Virus record (IMG/VR): IMGVR_UViG_3300009551_000003
Coordinates: 1-64,000 of that record
Direction: 5' to 3' (one strand)
Length of the DNA: 64,000 bases
Source of the DNA: a virus
The translations under genes were made by a program, and so were the position numbers. The notes under the pieces are model-generated. The model had not been told where the DNA came from. It saw only the letters and a program-made list of their open reading frames with translations, and did no database searches. Below, piece after piece: positions 42,434 through 47,666 of this stretch; positions within the stretch are counted from its first letter, which is position 1; every line of letters starts with the position of its first letter.

Positions 42434-42769
42434 ATGAAAGATGCAGGGGGCCACGGCAGCAATGAGCGCGGCGGTGTAGCGACGCACGCCTCCGCGATCC
42501 ATGCGCTCCCCGGAGTAGGGGCGATGCAAGCCGCTCACAATTCTCAGGTAGAGGCCGGTCGTTCCGACGCTTCATATCGTGCTGCCATGCCGATTGAGAA
42601 CTTTACCGGAGGGGTCCAAGATTTGCTAGGGCTCTGGGACGGGACCCAAAAGCCATCTCCCCTATCCGATGGCGAGAAGAAACAGATTAACGACGCTTAT
42701 GCGCAACGTGCGAACTTCCGGGTCTTGGCTGGGCAGATACAGGATCAACGGCGCCGGGCGGCACACTGA
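42434..42769 (+). CDS. MKDAKGHGS-leader protein 1
   Basis: Begins MKDAGGHGSNERGG. Confidence 0.8.
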   Translation: MKDAGGHGSNERGGVATHASAIHALPGVGAMQAAHNSQVEAGRSDASYRAAMPIENFTGGVQDLLGLWDGTQKPSPLSDGEKKQINDAYAQRANFRVLAGQIQDQRRRAAH

Positions 42770-42902
42770 CACACTGGCACGGATAAAACCGGGCTCCAGA
42801 TCACGCTCCCCCGGGGGTATGGGGATTATTGAATTAAGAGTTTGGTAGGTATATCCTGAGAACCTACTAGCGAATGGCCCGGCACGCGTGCCAGTGTGCC
42901 AA
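42770..42902. repeat. Second GTGCCAGTGTG iteron locus
   Basis: 42770-42788 is the exact reverse complement of 22865-22883; 42887-42902 is identical to 22872-22887. Confidence 0.8.
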
Positions 42903-42926
42903 ACGGTGTAGCCGAGGAGCATAATT

Positions 42927-43457
42927 ATGAAAGACGCAAAGGGCCACGGCAGTAACGCACGCGGCATCGTCGGGACGTTTACGCCCGACGCCAAGCATAT
43001 GTATAACCATTTGCGGAATAGCGGCGTCCCACACCGGCTTGCCGTAGACAGGACCTTCACGGCGTTTCCGGGCAAAACCCAAATGACGAACGCCGATGCC
43101 GCCGCCGCTCTGGCGAGTGGCCCGAAGTCGGCACCGGCTCCGGTCCATGACGCATGGAGCAACACCCCCGGCGGTGACCGCACGGACTGGCGCTTAAACA
43201 GTCACACGCATGAGATTGTATCGCCGTCCGGCGACGTGGCCGCGAGGATGCGGCTCGGGAAGAACAACGGCCTCGCCGTTGACGTGCCGGGCCAAGGCAA
43301 GATCAGCCACAGTGGCGGCCCGTCTATCCACGATGCGGTCGCCATGCCAGACTATCGCGCGAAAGGTGGATCGTTTCCGGCTGATCACATCTCTGGAGCG
43401 CTTCACTTTTTGACCGGCAAAGATTTCTCCGGTCACACGGTTCGGAGGGTCAAGTGA
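42927..43457 (+). CDS. MKDAKGHGS-leader protein 2 (with SGPKS module)
   Basis: MKDAKGHGSNARG; AAALASGPKSAPAPVHDAW. Confidence 0.85.
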   Translation: MKDAKGHGSNARGIVGTFTPDAKHMYNHLRNSGVPHRLAVDRTFTAFPGKTQMTNADAAAALASGPKSAPAPVHDAWSNTPGGDRTDWRLNSHTHEIVSPSGDVAARMRLGKNNGLAVDVPGQGKISHSGGPSIHDAVAMPDYRAKGGSFPADHISGALHFLTGKDFSGHTVRRVK

Positions 43458-43831
43458 AGGACGCAAAGGGCCACGGCTCAAATACTCGCGGCGGCAGTAA
43501 TGTCGGTCGGCGGTACACGTCCATGAGTTCGTTTACTCCATGGCCTAAAGGGACCCGGTTTGTCAAAGGCACGCTCGCCACTGCCGACGAAGTAAACCGA
43601 ATTGCCTCTGGCGTTAAGATCAACCCATCTGATACGGAAGCGGCTCGATCCCTCGCGAGTGGCCCCAAGTCGGCGCCGGCTCCTATCCATGACGCATGGA
43701 GTGAGACGCCCGGCGGCGACCGCAGTCCGAGTGACAAGGTCCACAGTACCTATACGATCAAGCCCGTAGCCGGCGGCCATGTGTTGGTCAAAGGCTCACG
43801 TGATCTGAAAATCGACGGGCGCGAGGGCTGA
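43454..43831 (+). CDS. MKDAKGHGS-leader protein 3 (with SGPKS module)
   Basis: GTG start overlapping the previous stop; ARSLASGPKSAPAPIHDAW. Confidence 0.85.
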   Translation: MKDAKGHGSNTRGGSNVGRRYTSMSSFTPWPKGTRFVKGTLATADEVNRIASGVKINPSDTEAARSLASGPKSAPAPIHDAWSETPGGDRSPSDKVHSTYTIKPVAGGHVLVKGSRDLKIDGREG

Positions 43832-43835
43832 TCCG

Positions 43836-44144
43836 ATGAAAGACGCACGGGGCCACGGCAGCAACTCACACGGCGGCGGTCCAGTCGTGCGGAATTGGTC
43901 ATCGGTACGCGGCATCATGCCGACGAAGCCGTACCGACAGGGCGGCACATGGCGGACAGACAAGCTCGGGCTCACCTATCGTGTTGATGATGCCGCTGCG
44001 GCCGGCGCGCTCGCGAGCGGCCCGAAGTCGGAGCCGGTCCCGGTGCACTATGCGATGCACGAGGCAGCCGGCAAACAATTCGGCCAGCGGATCGCGTCTG
44101 ATGATCGGCATCCGGTTGAGCAGTATCACAGGAACCCGCTATGA
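43836..44144 (+). CDS. MKDAKGHGS-leader protein 4 (with SGPKS module)
   Basis: MKDARGHGSNSHGG; AGALASGPKSEPVPVH. Confidence 0.85.
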   Translation: MKDARGHGSNSHGGGPVVRNWSSVRGIMPTKPYRQGGTWRTDKLGLTYRVDDAAAAGALASGPKSEPVPVHYAMHEAAGKQFGQRIASDDRHPVEQYHRNPL

Positions 44145-44674
44145 AGGATTCAAAGGGGCATGGCTCCGATACGCGCGGCGGCACGGGCACGCAAGGCATG
44201 CGGCTCGTGAAGACGCACGTCGCCGGTCCGCATTTTGCCAAGGTCTACAAGAATCCTGAGTGGGGAGAGAACGTCGTCAAGTTTTTCCACAACGGCGCTT
44301 ATCAGCCAAAGGCTGACTACTTTACCAACGACATGAGTGACGCACATGCGACTGCGCAATCGGCGCTCAATCGCTACACTGATCAGGACGCGAAGGCTGC
44401 GCTCGCGAGCGGTCCGAAGTCGGCCCCTGTCCCAGTGCATGATAGCATGATGAGCGATGCCGAACAGGGACGGCTCTCGGGTAGGCAGTTCGTAGATAGA
44501 GGCGACAGTCGAGCCCTTCCGGACGGATCATTCAAGGCTGACTGGCCCTCCTCTCCTAGGTATAAGGCAACAACGAGGTTGAACGCGTGGGGCCAGACCC
44601 CGGAGACGGCTAAGGCGGTCCGCAAGCAAATTCGGGACAACCGACGCCAGAGCAAGATGCGGAGCTATCCATGA
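44141..44674 (+). CDS. MKDAKGHGS-leader protein 5 (with SGPKS module)
   Basis: MKDSKGHGSDTRGG; KAALASGPKSAPVPVHDS. Confidence 0.85.
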   Translation: MKDSKGHGSDTRGGTGTQGMRLVKTHVAGPHFAKVYKNPEWGENVVKFFHNGAYQPKADYFTNDMSDAHATAQSALNRYTDQDAKAALASGPKSAPVPVHDSMMSDAEQGRLSGRQFVDRGDSRALPDGSFKADWPSSPRYKATTRLNAWGQTPETAKAVRKQIRDNRRQSKMRSYP

Positions 44675-46052: not shown

Positions 46053-46199
46053 GTGGCTCGTCGCGGAGATTGTAGACGGGACGCAACTCGTGTACTATTC
46101 GGGCGGCGTCTGCATCTGCACGATCGAGGTTGACCTGAGCCTGTCCTCCGCTAGGATTCTCGCGGATAATTTGAACAACGCCAAGGCGAGGCCGAAGAA

Positions 46200-46688
46200 A
46201 TGAAAGACGCAAAAGGACATGGCAGCGATAGGCGTGGTAAGTACGTTGATATCAACGGCAGAGGTATCATCCCGAGCCGGCCGTTTCGCGAAGGCACTGC
46301 CCATCAGGTTTCACTTGCTGAGAAGCATGGCATCCCTACCGACCATCTCGTAAATGTGCAGCCGGTTCGCGACTTTGGAAAGCGCAATACCGTGCCCGCT
46401 GGCGGTCCGGGAAACCCGAACGTGCCGGCGCATCAGTCACGAATCGGTGCACTGGTAAGGGAATTTGCAAAGTCTGAGGCCGGCGCTGGTAGGGTCCCAG
46501 AATCTCTCAAAGATTTTGACGTTCGTGGTAAAGATGCTTCGGACGTAAGTGATCTAGTGCACACCCTATACAAGGGTCTTGCTCACCACGGCGAGCCATC
46601 GAGTATACTTGACTTCATGCGCTTTCTAGGTTTCCTTGGCGCAATCGCTATCATTGACGTACTTGCATTGGGGATGGGCCTGAAATGA
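46200..46688 (+). CDS. MKDAKGHGS-leader protein 9 with a C-terminal hydrophobic segment
   Basis: MKDAKGHGSDRRG; ends FLGFLGAIAIIDVLALGMGLK. Confidence 0.85.
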   Translation: MKDAKGHGSDRRGKYVDINGRGIIPSRPFREGTAHQVSLAEKHGIPTDHLVNVQPVRDFGKRNTVPAGGPGNPNVPAHQSRIGALVREFAKSEAGAGRVPESLKDFDVRGKDASDVSDLVHTLYKGLAHHGEPSSILDFMRFLGFLGAIAIIDVLALGMGLK

Positions 46689-46882
46689 AAGATGCGAAGG
46701 GGCACGGCAGCAACGCTAAAGGCGTCGCGCAAGCGGCTGGATATAATGTCGTCAATCGAAAAGACGGCATGGGGCACGCCCTTGTTGATCCCATGCGAGC
46801 TAGCGGGAAATTTTCAGAGGCCGATATTACTCGATACCTAAAATGGATACCGAACAATAAACGTGGCATAGAACCCGTCTGA
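46685..46882 (+). CDS. MKDAKGHGS-leader protein 10
   Basis: MKDAKGHGSNAKG. Confidence 0.8.
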   Translation: MKDAKGHGSNAKGVAQAAGYNVVNRKDGMGHALVDPMRASGKFSEADITRYLKWIPNNKRGIEPV

Positions 46883-46892
46883 AGGTGGATCG

Positions 46893-47204
46893 ATGAAGGA
46901 TGCGAAGGGCCACGGCTCCAATCCTCGCGGCACGCACGCGAGCGGCGTGGAGAACCTTGGGAGGCCGGCGACGAGTGTCAAGCAAGTCATCAAGGCGGTC
47001 GGCAGTGACAAGCTCGATTTGGTCCGTGGCAATGGCTATTGGTACTTCATCTATGACGATCCTGTGAGAGGAATTTACGACACTACGAGCATCCCGACGA
47101 TGCAGCTTCGCAATTTCACGATTGAGGAGTGGGCGGCGGACGGCCGTGAGTTCGTAGCGAAGATGGAAAAACGCTATGCGGAAAAGTTGGCTCGACGGGG
47201 GTAA
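46893..47204 (+). CDS. MKDAKGHGS-leader protein 11
   Basis: MKDAKGHGSNPRGTHASGVE. Confidence 0.85.
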   Translation: MKDAKGHGSNPRGTHASGVENLGRPATSVKQVIKAVGSDKLDLVRGNGYWYFIYDDPVRGIYDTTSIPTMQLRNFTIEEWAADGREFVAKMEKRYAEKLARRG

Positions 47205-47207
47205 AGG

Positions 47208-47666
47208 ATGAAGGACGCAAAGGGCCACGGCTCCAATCCACGCGGCACGCACGCCGCCGGAATCGAGAAGGCGACGACGCCGGTTGTCGTCCGGCCCGAA
47301 GTGCTGGCGCATATCCAGAAGAACCCGGGCGGCTTTTCAGTCACGCCGAAGGGCCGCACTCCGAGCACCGGGTACATGGTTTCGGTTCCGGGGCGCACGC
47401 GAATCGTGAGCGAATCGGACCTCTCGGGTCCGGAAGGCAAGCGCATTCTACAGGCCTATGCCGAGGAGCACTCGGACGTGCTTCGCCAACCGGGCGCGCA
47501 TCTCGGCGGATGGACAGACAAGAACACTGGGAAGACCTATCTCGACGTGTCGCACAACATCAAGAGCTTGCCTAGAGCGGTGACCGCCGGCAAGGCGCGC
47601 AATCAGATCGCGATCTGGGATGTGAAGAGGCAGCGCGAGATTTCCACTGGCGGCACCGGAGAGTAA
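47208..47666 (+). CDS. MKDAKGHGS-leader protein 12
   Basis: MKDAKGHGSNPRGTHAAGIE; cargo GGW.D...G..YLDVS...QIAIWD. Confidence 0.85.
   Translation: MKDAKGHGSNPRGTHAAGIEKATTPVVVRPEVLAHIQKNPGGFSVTPKGRTPSTGYMVSVPGRTRIVSESDLSGPEGKRILQAYAEEHSDVLRQPGAHLGGWTDKNTGKTYLDVSHNIKSLPRAVTAGKARNQIAIWDVKRQREISTGGTGE

Follow-up and report, generated by a model that had tools for sequence, protein, structure and literature searches.

A complete phage genome of 118.7 kb (118,695 bp) carries, upstream of its packaging genes, an array of 12 co-oriented genes whose products open with the same peptide, M-K-D-x-x-G-H-G-S. This leader is a portable, intrinsically disordered peptide and does not mark the start of a single paralog family. 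It probably labels virion-carried proteins, because elsewhere it joins modules of giant head-associated proteins. We see about an even chance that it works as a cargo-unit header on proteins that are associated with the head and probably injected. The preliminary description, which took the leader for an address tag, is supported in part: the peptide is portable between unrelated bodies and tied to head-assembly proteins.

Layout of the array and its neighbourhood

ORF translations and a six-frame scan of the 64-kb window (the whole stretch of DNA analysed) recovered all 12 tagged ORFs previously described, each on the + strand. The comparisons across loci use a wider sample composed of 52 related IMG/VR loci and the present genome. 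As the IMG/VR loci were selected by a pattern requiring ATG ahead of the motif, they over-represent this clade, and K2, D3, G6, H7 and G8 are invariant among them by construction.

Gene #1 (42434..42769; 111 aa, MKDAGGHGSNERGG; pI 8.2) has no Pfam or PHROG family in profile searches. It is followed by #2 (42927..43457; 176 aa), #3 (43454..43831; 125 aa), which has a GTG start and overlaps #2 by 4 nt, #4 (43836..44144; 102 aa) and #5 (44141..44674; 177 aa). These four genes share a second short motif, LASGPKSAPxPVH, at residue 65 of #2 (GPKSAPAPVH), at residue 70 of #3, at residue 62 of #4 and at residue 91 of #5. In addition, residues 26-78 of #5 match phrog_7884 (66 positions, function unknown; E = 2.4e-16). 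The body of #6 (44671..45033; 120 aa) is a singleton, and that of #7 (45039..45413; 124 aa) belongs to a group of 24 members in 21 loci. An untagged acidic ORF (45410..45586, +; 58 aa, pI 4.3) with the second motif in the form HKSAPVPIHP overlaps #7 and #8 (45583..45819; 78 aa; MKDPMGHGS) by 4 nt each. Another untagged ORF (45819..46052, +; 77 aa) is RMF-like at a sub-threshold level, scoring 27.0 bits against Pfam RMF, slightly below the cut-off of 27.9, and has homologs in 14 of the 52 loci. Both #9 (46200..46688; 162 aa) and #10 (46685..46882; 65 aa) have singleton bodies. Residues 26-97 of #11 (46893..47204; 103 aa) cover all of phrog_23727 (76-position profile, E = 2.2e-23), and since the whole profile is matched, this body occurs alone elsewhere; a 54-nt stretch of the gene matches Sinorhizobium phage phiN3. 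The last gene, #12 (47208..47666; 152 aa), has a body group of 25 members in 25 loci, mostly final in the array.

The genes had been called mostly translationally coupled. Of the 11 junctions between tagged genes, four are 4-nt overlaps, four are gaps of 3-10 nt and three are gaps of 157-380 nt; untagged ORFs occupy the two largest of these gaps (169 and 380 nt). A 13th tag copy lies outside the window at 73983-74579 of the genome (198 aa), among tail genes and immediately after the tape-measure gene. The pI is at least 9.2 in 12 of the 13 tagged proteins, compared to 46% of the 118 other naive ORFs of at most 200 aa.

Directly upstream of the array is a conserved gene (42199..42426, +; 75 aa, phrog_16160) with homologs in 22 of the 52 loci. 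Two conserved low-complexity genes of no family lie downstream, one directly so (47780..48118, +; homologs in 26/52 loci) and one after it (48131..48430, +; 22/52). A terminator-like hairpin at 48450-48465, from a scan whose overall yield did not exceed that of shuffled sequences, separates the array from terS, so the array is perhaps its own transcription unit. The genes for the terminase small subunit (49049..49900, +; phrog_4044, E = 2.8e-10), terminase large subunit (49887..51506, +; phrog_979, E = 1.1e-26) and portal protein (51569..53227, +; phrog_145, E = 3.4e-108) follow, in agreement with the position originally assigned to the array. Farther downstream, two proteins of the head module start with a look-alike motif, termed type A, and in this respect the leader is not unique to the array. 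One is an 841-aa post-portal protein (53463..55988, +; MAFNPSEARDNQGRWTRGGG), the body of which is homologous to the C-terminal parts of the polyvalent protein P0124 and of the 1322-aa ORF of locus L076; the other is a 323-aa protein (56457..57428, +; MTYNPSEARNNHGEFG), part of which matches phrog_3170. The head scaffolding protein (57756..58646, +; phrog_206, E = 1.7e-43) has no tag. The genome gave no match to PF14550 or PF09979, and no protease family was found among the head-module proteins scanned.

In all 24 loci having a terL homolog, every tagged gene precedes terL in the same orientation, and the closest tagged gene is 2.1-6.4 kb away. Moreover, all tags share a single strand in each of the 37 loci with at least two tags.

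The leader peptide and its bodies

The leader consensus consists of one residue followed by K-D-x-x-G-H-G-S-[N/D/E]-x-[R/H/K]-G, often continued by H-x-x-G-[V/I]. The submotif H-[AS]-x-[GA]-[IV] is present in five genes (#1, #6, #7, #11 and #12), as first reported. Across all six frames, the window contains GHGS 15 times, 12 of them at the starts of the tagged ORFs; the other three occurrences (37727+, 53246- and 8636-) lack K-D and lie away from starts. The claim that the leader is found nowhere else in the window thus stands, but the leader is not confined to the array, since the genome has the 13th gene. A chance control with the degenerate DNA pattern over the 118,695-bp genome gave 13 forward, no reverse and no backwards matches. 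In the genome and the 52 loci together, all 237 six-frame matches to KD..GHG[ST] are at an ORF start, in the form M-KD (195) or M-[A/P/G/S]-KD (42), and Thr at position 9, although permitted by the search pattern, occurs in none of them.

Selection acts on the leader as a peptide, as originally argued, because synonymous codons vary and nothing upstream is conserved beyond a ribosome-binding site. Within the window, Lys is encoded by AAA/AAG, Asp by GAT/GAC, Gly by GGC/GGG/GGA, His by CAC/CAT and Ser by AGC/AGT/TCA/TCC, and the 30 bases upstream of the 12 array starts show no likeness to one another. Among 184 distinct copies from the wider sample, Lys is AAA in 106 and AAG in 78, Asp is GAC in 130 and GAT in 54, G6 and G8 each use all four Gly codons, and S9 is encoded by all six Ser codons, from both families; the only conserved feature upstream of these copies is a G-rich patch resembling a ribosome-binding site. 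AlphaFold2 models suggest that the leader is disordered, with pLDDT below 50 at residues 1-16 of #12 (body mean 85.9) and at residues 1-8 and 10-20 of #13 (body mean 87.7). Literature text searches found no paper containing the leader motif, and tblastn of the leader against a phage collection, a weak test with a 33-aa query, matched no record.

Taken from residue 15, the bodies of 231 proteins fall into 47 single-linkage groups by BLAST, 22 of which are singletons. The cargo domains had been described as unrelated. This is true of six array bodies, which are related neither to one another nor to the rest, but #1-5 and #8 (6/12) form one BLAST group, within which #2-5 share the second motif. 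The tag has been gained and lost on homologous bodies. Among the 120 listed homologs of body #13, 52 have the tag and 68 do not, and two carry R/H-D-x-x-G-[KR]-[FW] upstream of the domain instead of the tag. Similarly, BLAST grouping places the untagged ORF at 40995..41270 (+) with a homologous body that has the tag in 11 other loci. From residue 26 onwards, bodies #5 and #11 align with short stand-alone PHROG profiles over most or all of the profile length. In addition, the arrays are mosaic across loci.

Kinship with giant head-associated proteins

Bodies #12 and #13 are related to modules of giant proteins that are portal-linked, post-portal or internal to the virion. In cyanopodovirus S-CBP42, body #12 is found within an "internal virion protein" of 1610 aa, and its fold recurs in multi-domain phage proteins of 767-1102 aa (22 matches, E <= 0.001), two of which carry the names Zeta-toxin and XkdF. 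It is also present in P0401 (1470 aa, with a portal-domain fragment at its start), after a different junction peptide. Body #13 resembles residues 71-244 of the 1322-aa post-portal protein of L076 (46% identity, 1.3e-41), where its counterpart stands directly after YDPSEPRDERGRW. It has no Pfam match and a weak fold match to ADP-ribosyltransferases (best Z 5.1).

A profile of the first 33 leader residues retrieved 467 representative proteins (clusters) at E <= 0.001. The tag proved not to be N-terminal by nature, as had been assumed: among the best 149 of these 467 matches, 21 proteins have copies beyond residue 3, mostly two to four per protein and at most four. In P0126, an XkdF head-protease domain (PF14550, 2.2e-15) is followed by three tags. 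The N-terminal domain of P0174 has a weak DUF2213 match below the cut-off as well as a phrog_760 match; after it comes a region rich in His and Ala, helical on reading, which contains three tags; the N-terminus of P0137 resembles that of P0174 on reading, and no family matched it. P0124 has four tags, with weak MuF-type PHROG matches directly before the fourth, and on reading appears to hold an ART-like stretch. Altogether, these sequences place the tag within a putative MuF-type polyvalent protein and within predicted fusions of head-protease and helical scaffold-like regions. The 49 distinct internal copies show an upstream pattern, with a hydrophobic residue at -4 in 33, Lys at -2 in 28 and Ala at -1 in 35. 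The residue before K-D varies (A, T, E, S, N, M or V), and an upstream phi-x-E site is present in just seven.

Proposed function and known systems

We propose that the small, nearly all basic proteins are built of two parts, a disordered N-terminal peptide and a variable body. In this siphovirus clade, with its separate scaffold and no detectable head protease, each unit is its own gene, placed directly upstream of terS-terL-portal, and in other phages the same peptide lies between modules of MuF-type polyvalent and protease/helical scaffold-like fusion proteins. The leader is most likely a docking peptide that draws each unit into the procapsid ahead of DNA packaging; the virion would then carry the units into the next cell alongside the DNA, and the ART-like #13 and similar bodies may act early in the newly entered cell. 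We infer the loading, the binding partner, any trimming of the tag and the injection of the tagged proteins.

An unlikely alternative, though the most probable of those considered, is that the peptide serves chiefly in processing, as the site at which a head-maturation protease recognises or cleaves its substrates and divides polyvalent and scaffold proteins into units, and that in the present phage it is an inherited remnant or a protease-docking site instead of a loading tag. The internal copies do lie at module boundaries, straight after protease domains (XkdF in P0126, the weak DUF2213 match in P0174), and have the upstream pattern in common; a cut before A-K-D or K-D would leave a mature end like that of the ORF-type copies, M-KD or (M)A-KD. 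The T4 capsid-targeting sequence both targets and is cleaved off, which also counts for this alternative. However, the protease searches of the present genome were negative, and its scaffold is a separate protein, as in protease-less relatives such as PAE1. At ORF starts there is no upstream sequence to cut, yet nine residues are invariant in the 184 distinct copies, and the variable residue before K and the scarcity of phi-x-E sites likewise do not favour a processing site. Internal copies at module boundaries beside protease domains suit a processing site and a docking site equally.

It is rather improbable that the tagged proteins are absent from the virion and that the tag works in the host cytoplasm, as a short linear motif directing a set of host-takeover proteins to a single host partner (such as a chaperone, protease, ribosome or polymerase) or a single phage modifying enzyme. 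The tagged proteins combine small size and basic charge with partial disorder and several shuffled short motifs, the possible terminator sets the array apart from terS, and the single residue preceding K-D in 237/237 copies would fit a partner that reads a free N-terminus. Early host-takeover genes, too, typically form arrays that encode small basic proteins; this, the RMF-like gene within the array and the possible separate transcription of the array speak for a cytoplasmic role and against the header reading. On the other hand, the peptide is found within protease/scaffold-like fusions and a MuF-type head protein, all with roles in assembling the head, bodies #12 and #13 appear as modules of portal-fused and post-portal proteins, the 13th tagged gene lies amid tail genes, and the array stays beside the packaging genes in 24/24 loci.

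The view that the genes are a single diverged paralog family, or that their shared start works in the DNA or RNA (as a recombination site or translation signal) and not as a tag, is close to refuted: although one BLAST group takes in 6/12 genes and 27 conserved bases could aid cassette exchange in these mosaic arrays, there are 47 body groups, the same body occurs tagged and untagged, bodies #5, #11 and #12 match leader-less families, all synonymous codons are used with only a ribosome-binding site upstream, and other proteins contain the motif internally.

The header reading finds its closest parallel in the T4 internal proteins, a diverse set with only a capsid-targeting sequence in common, which suffices to bring foreign proteins into the head (PMC3012670); T4 Alt is an ADP-ribosyltransferase injected along with the DNA (PMC5512222). 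The likeness lies in a short N-terminal peptide common to otherwise diverse small proteins (IPI-III and Alt in T4) and in the ART-like appearance of #13. To our knowledge, the leader has no sequence likeness to that of T4. Compared to the T4 system, no head protease was detected in the present phage, the tag is also internal in giant proteins, the genes form one array beside terS, and encapsidation, known for T4, is here a prediction.

Packaging and injection are predicted for phage-type polyvalent proteins, which are encoded alongside the portal and terminase (Iyer, Burroughs, Anand, de Souza, Aravind 2017, PMC5512222). Bodies #12 and #13 appear to be modules of such proteins and the tag separates modules in them, but in the present array the modules are encoded singly, by small genes that each have a tag, and there is thus no multi-domain polypeptide, the feature that defines the type. 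The searched passages of that paper mention neither "GRF" nor "glycine" and describe no comparable junction peptide. In MuF polymorphic toxins and SPP1 gp7, the carrier is head-located and encoded beside the portal gene (Jamet et al. 2017, PMC5576092). Of the toxin domains, 14% are ADP-ribosyltransferases; packaging and injection are predicted for these proteins too, delivery with the DNA being hypothesised (PMC5576092). The main text of that paper contains no "linker", "junction" or "cleav". P0124, with its weak MuF-type matches, possible ART-like stretch and four tags, resembles these toxins, whereas the array proteins have no MuF domain, and any attachment would be via a 9-residue peptide and not a covalent MuF fusion. 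Encapsulin cargo-loading peptides, which are usually C-terminal and differ in sequence from the present tag, are also short disordered terminal peptides, and they dock diverse cargo on the inner surface of an HK97-fold shell in a protease-free manner.

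Organization and conservation of the tagged gene array

The virus record is a complete genome of 118,695 bp with direct terminal repeats, of which the window covers the first 64 kb. Its large terminase shares at most 60% identity with the terminases of Roseobacter phage RDJL3 and Yuavirus-type siphoviruses. Translation of the ORFs together with a six-frame scan confirmed that 12 co-oriented plus-strand ORFs within 42434-47666 (#1 to #12; starts at 42434, 42927, 43454, 43836, 44141, 44671, 45039, 45583, 46200, 46685, 46893 and 47208) open with the leader, or tag, M-K-D-x-x-G-H-G-S, the one at 43454 from a GTG codon. 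Across its six frames, the window has 15 GHGS strings, 12 of which are the tagged starts; the other three are without K-D and lie away from ORF starts. The preliminary description had noted the leader nowhere else in the window, which holds. In the whole genome, a degenerate DNA pattern gave 13 forward-strand matches, none on the reverse strand and none when read backwards. The thirteenth copy opens gene #13 (genome positions 73983-74579, 198 aa), located directly 3' of the tape-measure gene.

The tagged array proteins have 65-198 residues, each with a single body, i.e., the variable part following the leader. An isoelectric point of at least 9.2 was calculated for 12 of the 13 tagged proteins, compared to 46% of 118 other naive small ORFs. 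Genes #1, #6, #7, #11 and #12 carry the H-[AS]-x-[GA]-[IV] submotif, in agreement with the five genes initially described. The array junctions, described at the outset as mostly translationally coupled, comprise four 4-nt overlaps, four gaps of 3-10 nt and three gaps of 157-380 nt; three untagged ORFs sit within the two larger of these gaps (169 and 380 nt). The terS, terL and portal genes follow 3' of the array, with the scaffold gene (window 57756-58646), the major capsid gene (genome 64636-65733), the adaptor gene and the tape-measure gene farther downstream.

Pfam search assigned no family to any of the 13 tagged proteins at E ≤ 0.1, and PHROGs returned only families of unknown function; a GapR match for #6 with an E-value of 0.22 was disregarded. 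Against the deposited phage collection, blastn with the array gave a single 54-nt match, and tblastn with the 33-residue leader gave none. Between 38000 and 54000, neither promoter-like sites (8, versus 6.1 ± 2.1 in shuffles) nor terminator-like sites (14, versus 16.6 ± 3.9) exceeded the shuffled background; the latter scan includes a hairpin at 48450-48475, between the post-array genes and terS, with a GC-rich 6-bp stem and a T-rich tail. In addition, an untagged 77-residue ORF inside the array (45819-46052) reached 27.0 bits against the Pfam ribosome modulation factor family RMF, just short of the 27.9 cut-off. Homologs of this ORF are present in 14 of 52 related loci, and its product may be a ribosome-hibernation-like factor carried by the phage. 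About 4 kb upstream of the tagged genes is a tRNA array of seven genes (Pro, Trp, Gln, Thr, Met, Ile and Asn; 37555-38261).

These 52 loci were retrieved from IMG/VR using a DNA pattern for ATG-K-D-A-K-G-H-G, a single stretch giving as many as 10 matches. Each locus had to contain ATG plus the core residues at least once, which biases the sample towards this clade. Synteny of the arrays is seen across related loci. Homologs were found for the genes at 42145-42426 (22 of the 52 loci), 47720-48118 (26) and 48131-48430 (22), as well as for terS (24), terL (24) and portal (19). In all 24 loci with a terL homolog, every tagged gene lies upstream of terL in the same orientation, with the nearest tagged start 2.1-6.4 kb away, and in all 37 loci with at least two tags these are on one strand. 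The position of the array just upstream of terS-terL-portal stands, both in this genome according to PHROGs and in the relatives, and a pattern search of the kind suggested at the outset recovered arrays beside terminases.

A frame-blind search for KD..GHG[ST] in the 52 loci and the genome yielded 237 matches, representing 186 distinct proteins, and all 237 are at an ORF start, with M-KD in 195 and M-[A/P/G/S]-KD in 42. That K, D, G, H and G never vary in this set is by construction, but Ser at position 9 is unforced, as Thr was permitted there and never seen. Methionine aminopeptidase removes the initiator Met before small residues; if this applies here, each mature tagged protein would have exactly one residue before K-D. 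All synonymous codons, including the six Ser codons, occur among 184 distinct copies, and upstream conservation is limited to a G-rich, ribosome-binding-site-like patch at -13 to -8. Within the window, too, the conserved residues are encoded by differing codons and the 30 bases 5' of the tagged starts are dissimilar. These patterns uphold the proposal that selection acts on the peptide and not on DNA. After the core, the 184 copies have Asn, Asp or Glu at position 10, Arg at 12 in 110, Gly at 13 in 130 and Gly at 14 in 89. In the AlphaFold2 models of #12 (mean pLDDT 85.9; residues 1-16 below 50) and #13 (mean pLDDT 87.7; residues 1-8 and 10-20 below 50), the leader is predicted to be disordered and the bodies folded.

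Among 14 pattern matches on bacterial genome contigs, four have the full motif, all from metagenome-assembled genomes of Hyphomicrobiales or other Alphaproteobacteria, which suggests an alphaproteobacterial host group. One alphaproteobacterial metagenome-assembled genome has single tagged genes on contigs of 1.96 Mb and 469 kb, at 1474-1830 of locus L061 and 1313-1624 (minus strand) of locus L065. The L065 gene adjoins a protein that matches, at its end, the scaffold C-terminus of this phage (74% identity over 42 residues), and L061 also carries an ORF that reads by eye as primase-like. These two genes may belong to a satellite or to the remnant of a prophage, with capsids supplied by a helper. 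Homologs of 47780-48118 and 48131-48430 guessed by eye in L061 were dropped, as tblastn at 1e-3 did not support them.

Bodies of the tagged proteins

Single-linkage BLAST clustering of 231 bodies, taken from residue 15 onward, resulted in 47 groups, 22 of them singletons. The cargo had been described as unrelated, which agrees with the number of groups but not with the fact that #1-5 and #8 all fall into the largest group (89 members). What links its members appears to be chiefly a second short motif, A..LASGPKSAPxPVH, whose core was matched by a regular expression in 18 of the 186 distinct tagged proteins from 13 loci. The motif is located mid-protein in genes #2-#5 (43100-44450), and a shorter form, KSAPVPIH, occurs in an untagged acidic ORF at 45410-45586; further shuffled mini-modules in array proteins of relatives are ENAPF..SRL, YLDPxDPR and GPGHxxxLxQGI[KR]N.

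Several bodies also occur without the tag. From residue 26 onward, bodies #5 and #11 align with short stand-alone PHROG profiles over most or all of the profile length, and leaderless homologs of body #12 occur in 215 phage records of the deposited collection. The tag is present in 52 of the 120 listed homologs of body #13 and absent from 68, a few of which are fragments; in two of the 120 homologs, P0040 and P0099, H-P-R-D-N-N-G-K-F-T or A-R-D-D-H-G-R-W-T stands upstream of the domain in place of the tag. The gene at 40995-41270 lacks the tag, whereas homologs of its small body (FKVEKH...NPN..IRI) bear it in 11 other loci, an example of tag loss or gain. In another #13 homolog, P0075, part of the leader is duplicated, MKDALGHGS...DAKGHGS appearing twice in the first 45 residues. 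Judged from these comparisons, tag and body are separable, and the tagged proteins are not one paralog family.

No solved fold can be named for body #12, for which a PDB sequence profile search gave no hits, Foldseek against the PDB gave none at E ≤ 0.001, and the best VIA-align wide match had a Z-score of 3.8. For #13, the best VIA-align match is a RES toxin (9r35_A), with a Z-score of 5.1 and an RMSD of 4.0 over 106 residues. Most of the 50 VIA-align matches are RES, ParT, MbcT, NatT, PARP and diphtheria-type chains, all with Z-scores of at most 5.1, and a cyanophage pre-ejectosome chain is also among them. The Atlas structure search offered ART-PolyVal as a lead (TM 0.43), Foldseek against the PDB found nothing at E ≤ 0.001, and Pfam found no family at E ≤ 0.1, hence no curated ADP-ribosyltransferase (ART) family such as ART-PolyVal (PF18760), RES or PARP. 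On these models body #13 is putatively ART-like. Homologs of this body occur in fusions with stretches that read by eye as ParB-like and zincin-like.

The tag and look-alike motifs in head-linked proteins

A leader profile (alignment A2; first 33 residues of 150 sequences) was searched against 1.84 billion representative proteins, and 467 of these, clustered at 50% identity, matched at E ≤ 0.001. Among the best 149 of the 467, the tag is solely at the start in 128, and 21 have copies further in, mostly two to four per protein. The tag, described at the outset as an N-terminal leader, is not N-terminal by nature. In P0126 (664 aa), a head-protease domain of XkdF type (PF14550, 2.2e-15; PHROG 'head maturation protease') precedes a His/Ala-rich, seemingly helical region with three tags. 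The N-terminal domain of P0174 (1707 aa) matches DUF2213 weakly, below the cut-off, and also phrog_760, and is followed by long His/Ala-rich stretches with three tags; the N-terminus of P0137 (755 aa, three tags, no Pfam or PHROG family) reads like that of P0174. P0124 (1380 aa) has four tags, with weak MuF-type PHROG matches just before the fourth, an ART-like stretch identified by eye, and a C-terminal part homologous to the 841-residue post-portal protein of this phage. As the residue before the internal tag is Ala in 35 of 49 distinct copies, and not Met, the internal copies are not read-through of gene arrays.

The genomic context of internal copies comes from the DNA-pattern scan of IMG/VR, in which they lie near portal, MuF and protease genes (loci L073-L085); no relatives of P0126, P0137 or P0174 were found in IMG/VR. 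A 528-residue protein of L083, whose protease region reads like that of P0126, carries two motifs, I-D-P-N-H-D-A-K-G-R-F-A-S-G...G-H-G-S-N-P-K-G-G near its start and V-V-K-A-K-D-A-K-G-H-G-S near its end.

Two head-module proteins of this phage start with a look-alike motif: the 841-residue protein at 53463-55988 with MAFNPSEARDNQGRWTRGGG and a 323-residue protein at 56457-57428 with MTYNPSEARNNHGEFG. Their common start, M-x-[FY]-N-P-S-E-A-R-[DN]-N-x-G-x-[WF] (53463-53530 and 56457-56510), recurs in 10 of 12 related loci with post-portal DNA. Array tag and look-alike follow a common pattern, [R/K]-[D/N]-x-x-G-x-x-x, and are probably akin. The 841-residue protein has no Pfam or PHROGs family; by eye, its C-terminal third has Y-R-G ... 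S-T-T ... E-Q-E, an arrangement similar to that of R-S-E ADP-ribosyltransferases.

Moreover, the array bodies recur as modules of giant proteins. The 1322-residue post-portal protein of L076 consists of the motif YDPSEPRDERGRW, a #13-type body (46% identity, 1.3e-41) and the body of the 841-residue protein (E = 6.6e-54), parts that are separate genes here, each tagged. Body #12 lies inside the 1610-residue 'internal virion protein' of cyanopodovirus S-CBP42, and its fold recurs in multi-domain phage proteins of 767-1102 residues, two of which are named Zeta-toxin and XkdF. In P0399-P0401 (1470-1657 aa), each module boundary is marked by a third junction peptide, R-A-[FW]-C-P-T-G-x-G-G-G-x-D-N-S-C, and body #12 is one of the modules located behind it; the first part of P0401 is a portal-domain end (PF04860, 1.7e-16). 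In these settings, one body thus stands behind three different headers, always in head-linked proteins.

Possible roles of the tag and comparison with known systems

The simplest account is a cargo header, which would head each 'cargo unit' of phage-head proteins; we consider the chances of this reading about even. Virion loading, as put forward in the preliminary description, accords with the selection on the peptide, its portability and the head-linked bodies, but the tag is not strictly N-terminal. The major capsid protein (36-row alignment A4), co-folded with the first 33 tag residues (A2), scored 0.02 and 0.01 against a mark of 0.32, which speaks neither for nor against binding. A broader proposal is doubtful: KDxxGHGS might be a general signal by which tailed-phage capsids load cargo independently of a protease, and perhaps one that leads ejection. 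It would then be interchangeable with other 'unit headers' such as R/H-D-x-x-G-R-[FW] and C-P-T-G-x-G-G-G-x-D-N-S-C, and any bearer would be taken into the procapsid via one conserved site. If so, a single library of exchangeable effectors would be packaged in two ways, as polyvalent proteins and as tagged gene arrays, and a tag of 9-30 residues would suffice to load chosen proteins into phage heads.

Alternatively, the peptide might be mainly a processing signal, which we regard as unlikely. The 49 internal copies are preceded by a hydrophobic residue at -4 in 33 and by Lys at -2 in 28, and a T4-like phi-x-E cut site is upstream of only seven and is not a general feature of internal tags. A tag at an ORF start has no upstream sequence to cut, and in this phage the scaffold is a protein of its own and neither an XkdF nor a DUF2213 protease was detected (PF14550 and PF09979 had no match in the genome, and no protease family was found among the scanned head proteins); docking would therefore explain the nine invariant residues better than pure cleavage. 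A host-directed motif of non-virion proteins is also rather improbable. Under either alternative, the tag would still be a very strongly conserved short linear motif of an abundant soil-phage clade. A paralog family or DNA-level artefact is highly improbable in view of the 47 body groups, the coexistence of tagged and untagged #13 homologs and the use of all synonymous codons.

If the tag does load the capsid, it would define a large, so far unnamed class of virion-delivered phage proteins, with 467 clusters from the profile alone; most bodies have no known function, and many would be candidates for first-minute counter-defence or host takeover. Giant polyvalent proteins and arrays of small tagged genes would then prove to be alternative forms of one exchangeable library. 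A peptide of 9-30 residues would also offer a simple handle for finding packaged effectors in metagenomes and for testing loading in a phage that lacks a detectable head protease.

Capsid cargo addressed by a leader is already a known concept, as are polyvalent head proteins. As far as literature searches go, the peptide itself, its double use as ORF leader and internal junction, and its occurrence in a phage with no detectable head protease appear unpublished. No published account of the motif was found in the full text searched, with subscription journals and supplementary files outside that search. By their titles and the openings of their abstracts, the listed phage papers retrieved with GHGS concern greenhouse gases or otherwise unrelated matters. 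Passages of PMC5512222 and PMC5576092 describe no such junction peptide, and their supplementary files may bear on this.

Internal proteins of phage T4 are small and basic, as are nearly all of the tagged proteins. According to passages of PMC3012670, the T4 proteins are diverse and have only the capsid-targeting sequence in common, which can carry foreign proteins into the head. The tagged proteins also resemble them in bearing a short conserved N-terminal leader on otherwise unrelated small proteins (13 genes; 47 body groups across relatives). Packaging and injection have been predicted for MuF-toxin proteins (passages of PMC5576092) and for polyvalent proteins (passages of PMC5512222). Unlike MuF polymorphic toxins, which combine an N-terminal MuF domain with a C-terminal toxin, no array protein has a MuF family; in the head-module scan, the 114-residue ORF at 57428-57772 gave the sole match to a piece of a MuF-type PHROG. 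Compared to polyvalent proteins, which have two or more effector domains per polypeptide (Iyer et al. 2017), the array proteins are single-body. Nevertheless, the two have domains in common, with the #12 fold and the #13 body found as modules of giant proteins, and the tagged genes likewise lie beside portal and terminase genes (24 of 24 loci).
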